In this document: piece by piece, positions 21,088 through 53,623 of the stretch
Layout: the number at the start of each line of letters is the position of its first letter
Position numbering within the stretch: position 1 is the stretch's first letter
Assembly (NCBI GenBank): GCA_964515735.1
Contig: CAZEVP010000003.1
Span: 18,731-82,730 of the forward strand
Direction of reading: 5' to 3'
From: an uncultured Verrucomicrobiaceae bacterium
GTDB taxonomy: Bacteria; Pseudomonadota; Gammaproteobacteria; Pseudomonadales; CAMLJR01
Length of the DNA stretch: 64,000 nucleotides
Notes under the pieces: model-generated
The model's input: only the letters and a program-made list of their open reading frames with translations
What the model was told of the DNA's origin: nothing
Database searches by the model: none
Translations under genes and position numbers: made by a program

Positions 21088-22625
<1,538 letters not shown>

Positions 22626-48654: not shown

Positions 48655-48696
48655 CCCGTGCAGGAACCGCGGGGTCATTACACACAGATCGACAAG

Positions 48697-48714
48697 GTAA
48701 GGAATAATCCTTAC
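48697..48714. promoter_or_regulatory. Candidate operator palindrome upstream of prlF-yhaV
   Basis: GTAAGGA-ATAA-TCCTTAC, 31 bp upstream of the antitoxin ATG, in an AT-richer patch. Confidence 0.35.
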
Positions 48715-48744
48715 AGTACAGGCATTGCTATCGGGAGAGCCGCC

Positions 48745-49062
48745 ATGCCTGAAATCCATGAAACCGCCACGCTGACGTCCAAGGGCCAGATCACGCTGCC
48801 CAAGTCCATCCGGCAGGTGTTGGGCGTGGACACTGGCGGCAAGGTAGCCTTCGATCTGCGTGGAGGCGAGGTCGTCGTGACGCGTGCCGACGCCGGGCAT
48901 GAAGACCCGGCCATCGGCGCCTTTCTGGGTCTGCTGGAGGCGGACATCCGCGCCGGCCGGCATGTCCGGTCCCTGCCGGAGGATCTCGCCCACGCCATGC
49001 TGGCACGTGCCGGTCAGGCGGTGGACCTGGATGAAGATATTGATGGCGAAGTAGCGATCTGA
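48745..49062 (+). CDS. prlF: AbrB/SpoVT-fold antitoxin, PrlF(SohA)-like
   Basis: ATLTSKGQITLPKSIRQVLGV (SpoVT-AbrB swapped hairpin). Acidic C-terminus. Stop overlaps the toxin ATG (TGATG). Confidence 0.8.
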   Translation: MPEIHETATLTSKGQITLPKSIRQVLGVDTGGKVAFDLRGGEVVVTRADAGHEDPAIGAFLGLLEADIRAGRHVRSLPEDLAHAMLARAGQAVDLDEDIDGEVAI

Positions 49063-49544
49063 TGCAGAGACATGGATGGACACTGCTGTTTCACGAGGGC
49101 GTGATCGAGCAGCTGCGCAAGCTGCAAACGGCTGCGGAACGGGCCGAACAGAACGACCCGCAAGGCTTCGAGAGCAACGCCAACGTCAAGCTGTTCCGGG
49201 CGCTGAGCCAGTTGATCATGGAGGTCGTGCCGAGCGCCCCCTCGCGCGACGAGTTTCGTCAGGGCAATACCTTGAGGCCGGCGTTCCGCCACTGGCGGCG
49301 CGCGAAGATTGGACGGCGATTTCGCCTGTTCTTTCGCTACGACGCCAAAGCCAGAGTGATCGTGTACGCGTGGGTCAATGACGAACAGACCCTGCGGTCG
49401 GCAGGCAGCAAGTCCGATCCCTACGCGGTGTTCGAGAGGATGCTCGGTCGTGGCACTCCGCCTGATGATTGGGCGGCGCTGGTAACGGCGAGCCAAGCGG
49501 ATTGGCGCGCAACGGAGAAACGCTCATCACCCGGTAGTGGCTGA
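49062..49544 (+). CDS. yhaV: YhaV-family type II toxin (ribonuclease)
   Basis: GWTLLFHEGVIEQL…FRQGNTLRPAFRHWRRAKIGRRFRLFFRYDAKARVIVYAWVNDEQTLRSAGSKSDPYAVFERML matches the YhaV pattern. Confidence 0.85.
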   Translation: MQRHGWTLLFHEGVIEQLRKLQTAAERAEQNDPQGFESNANVKLFRALSQLIMEVVPSAPSRDEFRQGNTLRPAFRHWRRAKIGRRFRLFFRYDAKARVIVYAWVNDEQTLRSAGSKSDPYAVFERMLGRGTPPDDWAALVTASQADWRATEKRSSPGSG

Positions 49545-49600: not shown

Positions 49601-50590
49601 CTACACAAACCCCTTCAACAACCCCCACACCGCCGCCTCGCGGTCGGCGCAGCGATTGAGAATCGCCGCCAGCTCATCGACGTCGAGTGCGCTGCGGCCG
49701 CGCGCCATCTTGCTGGCGCGCAGCGCGAACAGCCGCCACTCGTCGCCGGCCTCAGTCAGATCGAGCGCTGCCTGCTTCAGCAGGTCGCTGTCGCACAGCT
49801 TCGCCGCCTCCTGCAGGAACGATGCGTAGATGAAACGGAAACCGGCACCGCCGGTGCCGATCTCCTCCTGCATCCGCACGATGTGGGCGAGATAGAGATT
49901 CAGGTGCTCGCGGTCGGCGCCGGGGCGGCCGAGCCTGACGATGCACTTCGCCAGATGGCGGATTCCGCGAATGCCGATCACCGGCAGCGGCGCCTGATTC
50001 ATGATGCGGTGGTTGGCCTTCAGCGCGGCGCGGATCGCCGGGCGCAGGTCGACGTCGGTCGGCACTCGCGTCGGGCGGTACAGCAGCCCGCGCGCCGCCA
50101 GCGCGCCGCGCGCGAAACGCGCCTTGCGCAGATCGGTTGCCGCACAGCGTGCCGTGGTCTCGAACACCGGGTCGGAGATCAGGTAGTCGTCGCCGTCGCG
50201 GCCGTAGACGATCAGGTTGTGCGCGTTGAAGTGGAAGCGCATCTGTTCGGGAAAGTACGGCAGCCAGAACACGCTGGTCTGCAGCCCGGCGATCTGGCCG
50301 CTGTCGAGCAGCGCGTCGAGTTCGCGCATGCCGCGACCGGCGTCGCGGTAGGTGGCGCGCTGCATCGTCACGCCGAGCCGCTGCGCGACGCCCTTGATGA
50401 TGCGGCCGGGCGGCATCCGGTAGGCGATCAGCGGCATCCCGGACAGCTTCACCAGCGGGATGTAGGCGAAGGTCAGCGCGTTGGCGAGGCCGAACGCCAT
50501 CGGCTCGCTGAGCGGCAGGCCGTGGTGGGTGAGCAGGTTCGACACCACGCCGCTTTCGCAGTGGGCCGACTGGCGGTGCTGGTAGTCCAT
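49601..50590 (-). CDS. BtrH_N/DUF4872-type protein (butirosin BtrH-like ACP-dependent transferase fold)
   Basis: N-terminus SAHCESGVVSNLLTHHGLPLSEPMAFGLANALTFAY is the BtrH_N pattern with a catalytic-type Cys. Last gene of the minus-strand dar operon (4-bp gap to the upstream gene). Confidence 0.7.
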   Translation of the reverse strand: MDYQHRQSAHCESGVVSNLLTHHGLPLSEPMAFGLANALTFAYIPLVKLSGMPLIAYRMPPGRIIKGVAQRLGVTMQRATYRDAGRGMRELDALLDSGQIAGLQTSVFWLPYFPEQMRFHFNAHNLIVYGRDGDDYLISDPVFETTARCAATDLRKARFARGALAARGLLYRPTRVPTDVDLRPAIRAALKANHRIMNQAPLPVIGIRGIRHLAKCIVRLGRPGADREHLNLYLAHIVRMQEEIGTGGAGFRFIYASFLQEAAKLCDSDLLKQAALDLTEAGDEWRLFALRASKMARGRSALDVDELAAILNRCADREAAVWGLLKGFV

Positions 50591-50594
50591 CGGA

Positions 50595-51008
50595 TCAGAT
50601 CGTCTCGGAAGAGTCCGGCAGCGACTGCAGCTCGGCGACGCTCAGGCCGAGCGCCTCGGCGTAGCGAGCCAGCAGCCGCGGCGACAGCCGGGCGAAGCGG
50701 CGCGGGTCGAAGTGGCGGCGGATGCGCCACTGCCACAGGCCGCTGGTCTGCGCCAGCAGCGCCAGATCCATGCGGCGGCGGTACATGTGGAATTCGAGCG
50801 GCGCGGTGTCACCGCGCCGGGCGCGCGCCCAAGCGTCGTCGCGCTGGCGGTTGACGGCATCGATCGCCGCCTGTGTCGCCGCGGTCTCGACCTCCCAGCC
50901 GGCGGAGTGGACGCCGCCGTAGTCGCCGCGCTCGTCGACGGCGTAGAACAGCTTGCGCTGACCGCCGTAGTTGGGCGACGGATCCTGCGGCACCTCCTCC
51001 TTTTTCAT
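50595..51008 (-). CDS. 137-aa protein of unknown function with possible C-terminal HTH
   Basis: Lies 4 bp after the darB stop and 4 bp before the BtrH-like ATG. C-terminal MDLALLAQTSGL…LLARYAEALGLSVAELQ looks XRE-HTH-like. N-terminal half is unrecognised. Confidence 0.5.
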   Translation of the reverse strand: MKKEEVPQDPSPNYGGQRKLFYAVDERGDYGGVHSAGWEVETAATQAAIDAVNRQRDDAWARARRGDTAPLEFHMYRRRMDLALLAQTSGLWQWRIRRHFDPRRFARLSPRLLARYAEALGLSVAELQSLPDSSETI

Positions 51009-51012
51009 CGCT

Positions 51013-53244
51013 TCAGACAGCCGTCAGCTGCAGCAGCGCGGCCGAGAAGCGGCCGCTCTCCGGCACCCAGCACAGCAGCCGCTGGCCGCGCTCGATGCGG
51101 CCGCTGCGGCGCAGTTCGTCGAGGATGATGTAGATCGATGCGGCGCCGGTGTTGCCGCGCTCGGTCAGATTGGTGAACCAGCGCGATTGCGGAATCTCGA
51201 ATTCCGCATTGCGCAGGCCGTCGAGCACGCGGTCGCGGAAGTAGTTCGACGAGTAGTGCGGCAGGAACCAGTCGATGTCGCTGGCCCGCAGGCCGCGCTT
51301 CTGTTGCAGCACGCGCAGCGGTTTCTCGACCGTGTAATGCACGATGTGATCGTTCAGCAGCTTCACGTCCTGCTTGACCGCCAGCACCGACACCGCGTTG
51401 CGCTGTTCGGGGTCGAGCATGGCCCAGCCGGTCAGCGTGCCGTCGTCGTTCTTGACGGCGCCGGCGTACATGCAGGCTTCCATCTCGCCGGCATACGAGA
51501 AGATGTCGATCCAGTCGATGCGCAGGTTGAGCTGGCCCGGCTTCGGCTCGGGCCGCAGCAACGCGGCGCCGGCGCCGTCGGAGAGCATCCAGCGCAGGAA
51601 ATCCTTCTCGAATGCCAGCTCGGGTCGTTTCTCCAGGACATCGGCGTCGGCTTCGAACGCCGCCACCGCTTCGCCCTGATAGTTGCGTGCGCACAACATC
51701 GACGACGACAGCTCGGAGCCGGTGGCGATGGCACTGTCGTGCTGGCCCGAGGCCACCGCCATCCAGCCGTACTTCAGCGCGCTGACACCGCTGACGCAGA
51801 CGCCGCCGGTGGCGACCGTCTCCAGCACCGGCAGCTTCAGTTCGCCCTGCACCATCACCGCATGGTTCGGCATCAGCTGGTCCGGAATCGACGTGCCGCA
51901 GCCGAGGCAGCCGAGCTGGCTCAGGTCGAAATCGGCATCGCTGGCGAGCCTGCGCACCGCCGCCGCCGTCAGCGAGGCGTTGCTGTGGGTGGCGGCGCCG
52001 GTGCGCGGATCGATCGCGTAGTGACGGCTGCGGATGCCGTTGCTGCGCAGGATGGTGCGGCGCGCGCGCGACGGCCGCTCGCCGACCTGGCCGAGCACCT
52101 GCTCCATGCGGTCGTTGTCGACCGGCTCGTTCGGCAGGAAGGCGGCGGTGTCGGTGATGTAGACGCTACGGCTCATGCGGGGCGGTCTGCTCTGGCGATG
52201 TCTGTGAAAACGGTCGATGAAAATAGTCGGTAAAAGAGCGCAACGACGGCTCAGGCCGCGCCGGCCGCATCGGGCCGCATCGGGCCGCTGCAGCGGCAGC
52301 GGCTCGGGCGCGCGCTCCTCGCCGGACGGCGCCGCGAAATAGGCGCGCTGACGCGCGATGCGCGCGCGCGTCAGCGGTGCCAGCAGCCGCTTGATGACGG
52401 CGCTGAGCGGCACCACGGTCAGGATCAGCGTCACCAGGAACACGACGTAGAACACCAGCACCGCGCGCCGCAGCGGCGTGCCCGGCTTGCCGAGCGCGCG
52501 CAGCAGGCCGCCCCAGATGCGGAAGCTGCGGCGCGCGATCGTCTCCGAGGCGATCAACCGCTCGTTGATCGTCACCGCGCCGAGGCCGCGCAGCATCGGC
52601 GAGTCGTCGGCGGCATCGCGCTGCGGCAGCTGCGCGGCGATGGCGCGACCGAAACGGGCGGCATCGTCGATGTCGGCGCGGGTCACGCCGGCCTCCGGAA
52701 TCAGCCCGCCGAGCAGCGCGTTGCTCTTGCCGGTCAGCATCCAGCGCGGCGTCGAGATGAAGGTGAAGGCGCTGTGGCAGCTGTCGGTCAGCACGACGTT
52801 GTCGACCAGCCGCGCGCCGAGGCGTTGCAGGTGCTCCTTGACGATCTCCTGCGCCATCAGCCACATGTTGCGGCAGCCGATCAGCGTGATCACCGGCTTG
52901 CCGCGCAGCAGCCTCAAAGCCTGTTCGCTCTGCAGGAACGCCGTGGTCGGCAGCGATGGCGACAGGAACCAGACCTGGTAGGCGAGGATGACCAGATCGA
53001 ATTCAGCGTCGTCGGCGATGTCGAGCGGTTCGATCGGCGCGCTCTCGGTGTCGCCGTAAACCGTCTCCGGGAAGGTGTCGAAGAAGCGCCAGAACGGCCA
53101 CGGAAACGGGAACGGCCGGCGCGGGCGGACTACCGCCGTCGTCAGCGCGATGTCCGGGCTGGCCGCCAGCGGCGCGCAGACCGACCGCACGATCTCGCCG
53201 AGCTGGCCCGATTGCGAAAAATGGATGACGAGAACTCGTTTCAT
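51013..53244 (-). CDS. darAB: DarA-DarB fused reading frame (flavodoxin-like DarA module + KAS III-like dialkylresorcinol condensing enzyme DarB)
   Basis: DarA part is MKRVLVIHFSQSGQLGEIV… DarB part starts at internal ATG 52176 (MSRSVYITDTAAFLPNEPV) with Cys-His-Asn contexts GGVCVSG, LPHYSS, RGNTGAAS. There is no stop between them in this sequence. Confidence 0.75.
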   Translation of the reverse strand: MKRVLVIHFSQSGQLGEIVRSVCAPLAASPDIALTTAVVRPRRPFPFPWPFWRFFDTFPETVYGDTESAPIEPLDIADDAEFDLVILAYQVWFLSPSLPTTAFLQSEQALRLLRGKPVITLIGCRNMWLMAQEIVKEHLQRLGARLVDNVVLTDSCHSAFTFISTPRWMLTGKSNALLGGLIPEAGVTRADIDDAARFGRAIAAQLPQRDAADDSPMLRGLGAVTINERLIASETIARRSFRIWGGLLRALGKPGTPLRRAVLVFYVVFLVTLILTVVPLSAVIKRLLAPLTRARIARQRAYFAAPSGEERAPEPLPLQRPDAARCGRRGLSRRCALLPTIFIDRFHRHRQSRPPRMSRSVYITDTAAFLPNEPVDNDRMEQVLGQVGERPSRARRTILRSNGIRSRHYAIDPRTGAATHSNASLTAAAVRRLASDADFDLSQLGCLGCGTSIPDQLMPNHAVMVQGELKLPVLETVATGGVCVSGVSALKYGWMAVASGQHDSAIATGSELSSSMLCARNYQGEAVAAFEADADVLEKRPELAFEKDFLRWMLSDGAGAALLRPEPKPGQLNLRIDWIDIFSYAGEMEACMYAGAVKNDDGTLTGWAMLDPEQRNAVSVLAVKQDVKLLNDHIVHYTVEKPLRVLQQKRGLRASDIDWFLPHYSSNYFRDRVLDGLRNAEFEIPQSRWFTNLTERGNTGAASIYIILDELRRSGRIERGQRLLCWVPESGRFSAALLQLTAV
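52263..52288. repeat. 10-bp unit GGCCGCATCG in 2.6 tandem copies at the darA/darB junction
   Basis: 52263-52272 and 52273-52282 are identical, followed by the partial copy GGCCGC. Deleting one unit restores an in-frame TGA (TCA at 52251-52253) for darA. Confidence 0.9.
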
Positions 53245-53326
53245 CAACGAGCGCTTCCCTCTCAACTGGATGGACGCCCTGTTATCTCCCGCCGGCGGCG
53301 CAGGCCGCCGCACCGCGGGGGCCGGA

Positions 53327-53623
53327 TTATGACACGCCCGTGACCAGCGTCAGCTGCCCCTCGGCCAGCGGCTCGGCACCGACGCGGCAGACGAAACGCA
53401 AACCGCCATTGCGCGGCTCCGCCCAATGCACCTCGAACGGCTCGCCGCCGCGCAGTGGCCGCAGGAACTTCAGCTTGCGCACGCCGGTGGCTCGCAGCTG
53501 TGGCCGCTCGACGGCGAGCCGCAACAGCAGGCGGTCGAGAATGACCACAGCCGGCACCAGCGGCTGCCCCGGGAAATGGCCCGGCAGCGCGGGGTGGTCG
53601 GCTTCGATCTGCAGTGTCGGCAT
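53327..53623 (-). CDS. Small hot-dog-fold (FabA/FabZ-like) dehydratase
   Basis: HPALPGHFPGQPLVPAVVILD, a FabZ-like HxxxGHFPxxPxxPG motif. 98 aa. First gene of the minus-strand operon. Confidence 0.7.
   Translation of the reverse strand: MPTLQIEADHPALPGHFPGQPLVPAVVILDRLLLRLAVERPQLRATGVRKLKFLRPLRGGEPFEVHWAEPRNGGLRFVCRVGAEPLAEGQLTLVTGVS

Follow-up and report, generated by a model that had tools for sequence, protein, structure and literature searches.

Introduction

Is the single reading frame that joins darA to darB in the DNA analyzed here a real gene fusion, and if so, how did it arise? The stretch, hereafter called the window, is 64,000 nucleotides (nt) long and comes from an uncultured Verrucomicrobiaceae bacterium (contig CAZEVP010000003.1, positions 18,731 to 82,730). 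darA and darB belong to the synthesis of dialkylresorcinols, which are antibiotics, signals, and the lipid-like half of flexirubin/arcuflavin-type pigments. To our knowledge, DarA and DarB have always been two separate polypeptides in the systems described. DarB joins two fatty-acyl thioesters head-to-head into a carboxy-cyclohexanedione, which DarA then aromatizes (PMC6836626). An earlier note on this DNA had proposed that a tandem duplication of 10 base pairs (bp) abolishes the darA stop, and had left three explanations standing: a recent slippage event that created a natural fusion, a switchable length polymorphism, or an assembly or sequencing error.

A ten-base duplication joins darA to darB

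Three features, all on the minus strand, define the fusion.

51013..53244, minus strand: fused darA-darB open reading frame (ORF), 743 codons plus stop; from the ORF list, its translation, and an identical public protein.
52263..52288, minus strand: perfect 10-bp tandem repeat, 2.6 copies; from Tandem Repeats Finder, a pattern search with shuffles, and alignment to the one-copy allele.
52251..52253, minus strand: former darA stop TGA, out of frame in the fused allele and in frame in the one-copy allele; from the sequence and in-silico deletion.

The minus-strand ORF extends over 51013..53313. Counted from a GTG start it encodes 766 amino acids (aa); the ATG at 53244, which is preceded by a reasonable Shine-Dalgarno match, gives 743 aa. 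The 743-aa product consists of the DarA core, a linker of 45 residues, and a complete DarB. The ORF list and the translation bear out the claim that the darA stop is lost within one 743-codon DarA-DarB frame, and the positions given in the earlier note for the TGA (52253-52251), the darB ATG (52176), and the 74-nt spacer between them (52250-52177) all hold. The gene names used there are likewise supported, by an NCBIfam match, by the match to StlD, by the names of homologues, and by a gene order found in 80/80 related loci. DarA-DarB as one ORF is a new architecture of a well-known two-gene system.

Tandem Repeats Finder describes the repeat (window 52263-52288) as period 10, 2.6 copies, and 100% matches, with the plus-strand unit GGCCGCATCG; this agrees with the earlier reading of two 10-mers plus a partial third copy. 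The coding (minus) strand of the repeat is GCGGCCCGAT GCGGCCCGAT GCGGCC, and the minus-strand codons across it run ...CTG CAG CGG CCC GAT GCG GCC CGA TGC GGC CGG CGC GGC CTG AGC CGT... The extra 10-mer is the cause of the fusion: when one 10-mer is removed in silico, a 327-aa DarA ending in PDAAGAA* is obtained. Short tandem repeats are frequent in the window, whose GC content is 69%, and fill 45 Tandem Repeats Finder rows, nearly all with periods divisible by 3. Perfect repeats account for 4 of these 45 rows, the repeat at the darA end among them. The 20-mer GGCCGCATCGGGCCGCATCG occurs a single time in the window even when 2 mismatches are allowed, and is seen in 0/100 dinucleotide-preserving shuffles.

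Both alleles occur in an otherwise identical clone

A protein identical to the 743-aa product is listed in the public protein collection, from both NCBI and Logan. The fused allele is found on contigs of SRR16797981 (16,069 bp), SRR16797980 (16,071 bp), and SRR16798010 (4,283 bp), the last of these contigs being common to one further sample, and also on an NCBI contig of 95,545 bp. The three fetched fused-allele contigs agree with the window throughout (100% identity, 0 mismatches in up to 16,071 bp). The one-copy allele is found in SRR16797978, on a contig of 2,949 bp (L083) that has 0 mismatches and whose sole difference is one 10-bp gap. Thus, copy number between L083 and the window, L081, L082, and L087 differs by a 10-bp indel, with 0 single-nucleotide polymorphisms (SNPs). 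Across the available runs, the fused allele is the commoner of the two.

Genes called on the SRR16797978 contig are a 327-aa DarA ending in ...PLQRPDAAGAA*, a 74-nt spacer, and a 387-aa DarB, with DarA stopping at the codon that corresponds to the former TGA at 52251..52253. The separate-gene allele with one 10-mer, which the earlier note had only derived on paper, therefore exists in exactly that form (327 aa, 74 nt, 387 aa). The presence of both alleles in an otherwise identical clone indicates that the event is real, young, and still segregating.

These contigs also bear on the idea that assembly or sequencing created the duplication artificially in a GC-rich repeat and that darA and darB are really separate. 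The region is indeed GC-rich and repetitive, the source contig of the window looks metagenome-derived, and one assembly (L083) lacks the extra copy. However, the same 10-bp insertion is seen in three separate run assemblies, in a further sample with an identical contig, and in the NCBI contig. Moreover, Logan assemblies use k = 31, and a de Bruijn graph at this k cannot alter a tract of 16-26 bp without reads that bear those k-mers. Since the self-similar stretch spans 16 bp with one copy and 26 bp with two, both shorter than k, neither allele should stem from graph collapse, and each would be carried by reads. Exact 10-bp indels are also untypical of Illumina error. The artefact, one of the three options left by the earlier note, is therefore extremely improbable: three independent assemblies have two copies and one has one, over a tract shorter than the assembler k-mer. 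An artefact being largely excluded, the sequences point to a real gene fusion event.

Further copy numbers were also sought. The 15-billion-protein collection contains no product of a 0-, 3-, or 4-copy allele. A scan of Joint Genome Institute (JGI) metagenomes for the junction, with 0-30 nt of extra repeat allowed, found nothing, and neither did a scan of the same metagenomes for the spacer core, so that no further alleles of the locus came from this source.

The fused state is derived

In 80/80 related genome loci, darA immediately precedes darB on the same strand. It keeps its own stop in all 80, where it encodes a DarA of 298-323 aa, and 0/80 are fused. The gap between the two genes in these loci is -4 nt (an ATGA overlap) in 19, -11 nt in one, 0-30 nt in 35, 31-80 nt in 18, and more than 80 nt in 7. 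Even in the 50 listed loci in which darA and darB share a frame, the intervening stop is kept in 50/50. A comparison of darA ends and spacers had been suggested as a check; the related loci retain their stops, and the relatives aligned at this site lack the repeat.

Protein searches agree. The best 120 of 3,561 DarA homologues are single-domain proteins of 307-342 aa, and the best 120 of 7,885 DarB homologues are single-domain proteins of 379-399 aa. A phmmer search over 1.84 billion representatives gave no in-frame DarA-DarB fusion among the best 150 matches; the top match is a plain 385-aa DarB, and a true fusion would rank first. Together, the 80/80 stops, the single-domain homologues, and the phmmer search argue that the fused state is derived, and in the collections searched so far the fusion appears to be unique. 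A fused architecture recurring in other lineages, as expected of an established bifunctional family, was not seen among the best 150 phmmer matches or in the 80 loci.

Several apparent fusions were rejected on inspection. P0020 (568 aa) carries about 130 out-of-frame residues between its domains and is a frameshifted read-through, and P0005 (476 aa) is a DarA ORF that runs into darB DNA after a frameshift. Five Stutzerimonas/Pseudomonas loci seemed fused because tblastn had extended through an in-frame stop, which is found when the loci are rescanned from the start of the high-scoring segment pair. P0005 and P0020 contain long junk rich in Arg, Pro, and Ala, and illustrate how the scarcity of stops in GC-rich DNA lets frameshifted genes mimic fusions.

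The closest species-level genome at this locus is L026 (CAYLRA010000029.1), a metagenome-assembled genome that is labelled "uncultured Verrucomicrobiaceae bacterium" and has about 88-90% DNA identity. The next relatives are metagenome-assembled genomes of Steroidobacteraceae and Caulobacterales, and the other relatives of the locus all belong to these two groups or to other Pseudomonadota; probably, the L026 contig is mis-binned or the locus was transferred.

Probable slippage at the end of darA

The duplication lies 14-17 codons past the last conserved DarA motif, and the alignments show this tail to be unstable in other ways. The DarA family is conserved as far as ...RQRAYFAAPSGE, with P306, S307, and G308 invariant; past PSGE the tails measure 0-20 residues, are freely variable, and are unconserved. 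In L084 and L085 (91% relatives), DarA ends in ...PSGEERAA*, followed by a homologous spacer of about 64 nt. Compared with these two, the window lineage carries 42 additional in-frame bp, in which GCCGCT and GCGGCC repeats abound, and its DarA tail is 14 residues longer. At the darA 3' end of L085 (L085:1-70, ENA ERZ23499817), there is an in-frame 21-bp tandem duplication by which FAAPSGE is encoded twice, independent evidence that the darA end is prone to slippage. In L026 (a 90% relative), the spacer has been lost entirely, and the darA TGA overlaps the darB ATG as ATGA. The 137 bp that L026 lacks were considered as a fresh insertion or mobile element in the window lineage, a candidate that was rejected, there being no other copy in the window or the 80 loci. 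Since L084 and L085 share the homologous spacer, the difference reflects local indel turnover. Taken together, the 42-bp insertion, the L085 duplication, and the loss of the L026 spacer mark the darA 3' tail as a local indel hot spot, at which the 10-bp duplication is, on these alignments, the latest event and the sole out-of-frame one.

The coding strand of the parental allele reads GCGGCC-CGAT-GCGGCC, a 6-bp direct repeat whose members lie 10 bp apart. A short direct repeat at such a spacing is a classical substrate for slippage duplication. During replication, the nascent strand would have misaligned on the GCGGCC repeat and so added one GCGGCCCGAT unit. The 10 additional nt act as a +1 frameshift that puts the TGA out of frame, and a ribosome would then read on through the 74-nt spacer, which is stop-free in that frame, into the frame of darB.

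One further feature lies beside the repeat.

52284..52297, no strand assigned: 14-bp perfect palindrome, GCCGCTGCAGCGGC, abutting and overlapping the first repeat unit; from a self-match on the opposite strand.

Slippage driven by a hairpin at this palindrome is not supported, the stability of the hairpin relative to shuffled sequence being z = -1.26.

A recent duplication by replication slippage, real, derived, and polymorphic within one clone, is thus a highly probable account of the locus, an estimate that concerns the genetic event and not the activity of the fusion. It is also the best supported of the three options in the earlier note.

The same two alleles invite a more dynamic interpretation, in which the repeat is a reversible contingency (phase-variation) switch whose frequent expansion and contraction alters the output of dialkylresorcinol or pigment. 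Such a switch would cycle through three states with copy number n: separate genes at n = 1 or 4, fused genes at n = 2 or 5, and at n = 0 or 3 a DarA with 35 additional residues, which would stop at a TAG spanning darB nucleotides 9-11. Two copy-number states in the same clone, with 0 SNPs over 2.9-16 kb, fit this idea, as does a unit whose length is not a multiple of 3, so that the reading-frame outcomes cycle with copy number. These properties (a tandem unit not divisible by 3, variation of copy number within a clone, and a shifting frame) are shared with the contingency loci of Neisseria and Haemophilus. Classical slipped-strand switches, however, have many more repeat units, whereas here there are 2.6 units in one allele and 1.6 in the other, far from a long tract of many units. 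Unlike the Neisseria and Haemophilus loci, this one also has just two known alleles, and it yields a fusion or separate proteins instead of ON or OFF. The 0-, 3-, and 4-copy products missing from the protein collection, and the JGI metagenomes, which gave no match that could reveal further alleles, speak against a switch as well. Finally, the repeat is absent from the relatives and so is not a conserved device. With just 2.6 units and just two alleles, a high-frequency switch is quite unlikely. Of the "switchable length polymorphism" raised in the earlier note, the polymorphism is real within one clone, while reversibility and a high or raised rate are disfavored by the small number of units. 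In another GC-rich bacterium, M. tuberculosis, phase variation by tandem-repeat copy number is reported for units of 57 bp and longer, located in promoters (PMC12817950).

The DarA half

52312..53244, minus strand: conserved DarA core, residues 1-311; from the family alignment, AlphaFold2, Foldseek, and the names of homologues.

The core contains a flavodoxin/WrbA-like domain and two helices, one at residues 228-250 and a long, partly hydrophobic one at 257-304; it ends at the ...AYFAAPSGE motif, which is conserved in the family. An AlphaFold2 model built from 57 sequences, which covers DarA and the linker only, has a predicted local distance difference test score (pLDDT) of 86.8 and a predicted template modeling score of 0.84, and is confident for the core; Foldseek matches it to flavodoxins and WrbA. 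No Pfam or NCBIfam model matches this N-terminal half. There are 3,561 DarA homologues at E <= 1e-20, few of which are named; those named by NCBI are nearly all "dialkylresorcinol condensing enzyme". The family alignment has 53 invariant columns up to PSG(E). Near the C-terminus lies a conserved hydrophobic segment of 26 residues, and the flank on the C-terminal side of the hydrophobic helix has 6 Arg/Lys residues. By homology, predicted fold, and gene order, the DarA half is a predicted DarA-type aromatase.

The DarB half

51013..52176, minus strand: darB, a StlD/DarB-family head-to-head ketosynthase of 387 aa; NF005293 at 570 bits, PDB 5gk0 at 449 bits.

The NCBIfam model NF005293 (StlD/DarB family) matches ORF residues 384-766 of 766 over its full profile (1-378 of 378) with 570.3 bits, above its cutoff of 450. 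The exception model NF053539 ("resorcinol_DarB") gives 464 bits, which is under its cutoff of 550; DarB is thus a member of the StlD/DarB family rather than a Pseudomonas-type equivalog. DarB residues 1-387 align to crystallized StlD (PDB 5gk0) with E = 1e-133 and 449 bits, and in the StlD chains 20 residues precede the position aligned to DarB residue 1. The fused and one-copy alleles encode the same DarB sequence, which is also that of P0014.

Nine DarB homologues (P0063, P0080, P0094, P0097, P0108, P0121, P0124, P0147, and P0011) are long proteins of 613-868 aa, with an N-terminal ketosynthase and, on its C-terminal side, about 250-490 further residues; P0011 has a match to Pfam PF14518. 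Natural DarB fusions therefore do occur, but with other partners, which are attached at the C-terminus of DarB.

The linker, the former spacer, and expression signals

52177..52311, minus strand: fusion linker of 45 residues (312-356); from the translation, AlphaFold2, and the family alignment.
52177..52250, minus strand: former 74-nt darA-darB spacer, 57% GC versus 69% for the window; L084 and L085 have a homologous spacer.
53326..53353, minus strand: match to a sigma-70-like promoter, roughly 80 nt before the darA ATG; a consensus match only, and the sole one in 51900-53500.

The linker consists of the lineage-specific DarA tail RAPEPLPLQRPDAA followed by RCGRRGLSRRCALLPTIFIDRFHRHRQSRPPR, the latter being derived from the frame-shifted end of the old tail, the old stop, and the 74-nt spacer. 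It is basic, and the read-through sequence has two Cys and many Arg. Residues 313-356 have pLDDT values below 50 in the AlphaFold2 model, and the linker is predicted to be disordered. Within the spacer, positions 52205-52229 hold an imperfect 13-bp direct repeat (minus strand, CGACTATTTTCAT / CGACCGTTTTCAC), which is now translated as part of the linker and, judging from its sequence, could be a candidate binding site for a regulator.

No promoter-like or terminator-like site was found when the spacer (52177..52250) was scanned. The predicted Shine-Dalgarno duplex of darB is -2.2 kcal/mol, compared with -1.8 to -3.0 for the coupled downstream genes, -6.3 for darA, and -8.1 for apeI. In the one-copy allele, darB would begin 74 nt past the darA stop and would apparently lack strong signals for initiation; with two copies, each ribosome completing DarA would continue into DarB. 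Having no promoter-like match and a weak Shine-Dalgarno sequence, darB of the fused allele is probably made mostly as part of the fusion. The fusion may in this way restore the 1:1 coupled expression that relatives obtain from the ATGA overlap.

Does the fusion work?

With both domains intact and joined by a flexible linker, the fusion plausibly keeps the activities of both DarA and DarB. The contrary outcome would be a genuine mutation that inactivates DarA, DarB, or both, through misfolding, mislocalization behind the hydrophobic helix of DarA, or blocked DarB dimerization, in a clone that is losing the dialkylresorcinol branch of its aryl-polyene pigment pathway. This would be a consequence of the duplication and leaves its reality untouched, so it overlaps with the slippage account preferred here. 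Consistent with such a loss, a fusion of this kind has been fixed in none of the other lineages among thousands of homologues, and the stop kept in 50/50 same-frame loci would fit selection against fusion. DarA has a conserved hydrophobic C-terminal helix, and the read-through part of the linker is unselected sequence with its two Cys and many Arg. Set against this, neither domain has lost any part, the long linker is predicted to be disordered, and most of the runs carry the fused allele. A basic flank tends to stay cytoplasmic (the positive-inside rule), and the 6 Arg/Lys after the hydrophobic helix suggest that this flank is probably cytoplasmic, which would make the fusion topologically possible. 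The StlD crystal chains, moreover, carry 20 residues ahead of the equivalent of DarB residue 1. On balance, loss of function is possible, though we doubt it.

Beyond retained activity, the duplication may be adaptive. It would then restore stoichiometric DarB, tether the ketosynthase to a possibly membrane-associated aromatase, and channel the unstable carboxy-cyclohexanedione, and slippage could convert each allele into the other, so that a clonal population would have two states of pigment or signal output. This full scenario is unlikely. If it were true, the locus would show a fusion of consecutive pathway enzymes during its polymorphic phase, and the mutation behind it would be known.

Several points weigh against interpreting the locus as a young, working fusion created by slippage. 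The alleles were read from assembled contigs, so that their counts refer to runs and not to frequencies within a sample. The SRR runs have neighboring accession numbers and probably belong to one study, so that the assemblies are independent while the populations perhaps are not. The polarity of the change depends on outgroups, and the one-copy contig of SRR16797978 could be a revertant of the fused allele. As the palindrome hairpin is not significant, slippage has no special structural driver. The Shine-Dalgarno comparison involves 11 genes only. The fusion protein is a product predicted from DNA. Lastly, if the hydrophobic segment of DarA spans the membrane with the C-terminus outside, then DarB would be mislocalized and the allele would be one of loss of function.

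Comparison with known systems

The darABC, stlCD, and brtCD loci (of Pseudomonas aurantiaca BL915, Photorhabdus luminescens, and Synechocystis salina) have the same two enzymes in the same order, with DarB, StlD, and BrtD as the ketosynthases and DarA, StlC, and BrtC as the aromatases (PMC6836626). Unlike these loci, the window encodes the pair as one 743-aa ORF. Whereas many relatives have the ATGA overlap, the window lineage has the 74-nt spacer.

In "Rosetta-stone" fusions such as hisIE and trpCF, adjacent operon genes have been joined by loss of the intervening stop. As in hisIE and trpCF, consecutive, co-oriented pathway enzymes have become one polypeptide here, with the spacer translated as a linker; in contrast to them, the alleles before and after fusion are both seen in one clone, the mutation is known to the base, and the fusion is unfixed. 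The locus is thus a natural experiment on how operon neighbors become bifunctional enzymes and on whether tethering aids the hand-over of carboxy-cyclohexanedione. It could also serve directly as a template for engineering a DarA-DarB fusion. In annotation, the 743-aa ORF should be left as it stands and not "corrected" as though it were a frameshift error. Should the fusion prove inactive, the locus would represent a young loss-of-function mutation of local interest.

The gene neighborhood and other features of the window

The neighbors of darA-darB are aryl-polyene genes: ApeI-like, ApeP-like, acyltransferase, acyl carrier protein, and AMP-ligase genes. They mark the locus as the dialkylresorcinol branch of an aryl-polyene/dialkylresorcinol pigment cluster; in flexirubin/arcuflavin clusters, darA-darB likewise lies beside aryl-polyene genes. 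An Rfam search of the window found no RNA genes.

After darB, with 4-nt spacings, positions 49601-51008 (minus strand) encode a conserved 137-aa protein that has no Pfam match and a BtrH_N/DUF4872 protein. Both genes recur downstream of darB in L084 and L086, and from this arrangement the two proteins are likely to be further uncharacterized members of the dar module. Directly beside the pigment cluster, at 48658-49544 (plus strand), lies a PrlF-antitoxin/YhaV-toxin pair, followed by a gene for a YkuD L,D-transpeptidase.

A second tandem duplication is found at 21088-21127. It is perfect, with 2.0 copies of the 20-bp unit GCAGCAGCTGCCCGATCAGC, which again is not a multiple of 3, and it lies just upstream of, or at the 5' end of, a 417-aa ORF (21133..22386, plus strand). 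Judging from its sequence, it could be another frameshifting or start-shifting duplication: when one GCAGCAGCTGCCCGATCAGC copy is removed, the open frame across the site changes from 450 to 462 codons, counted stop to stop.

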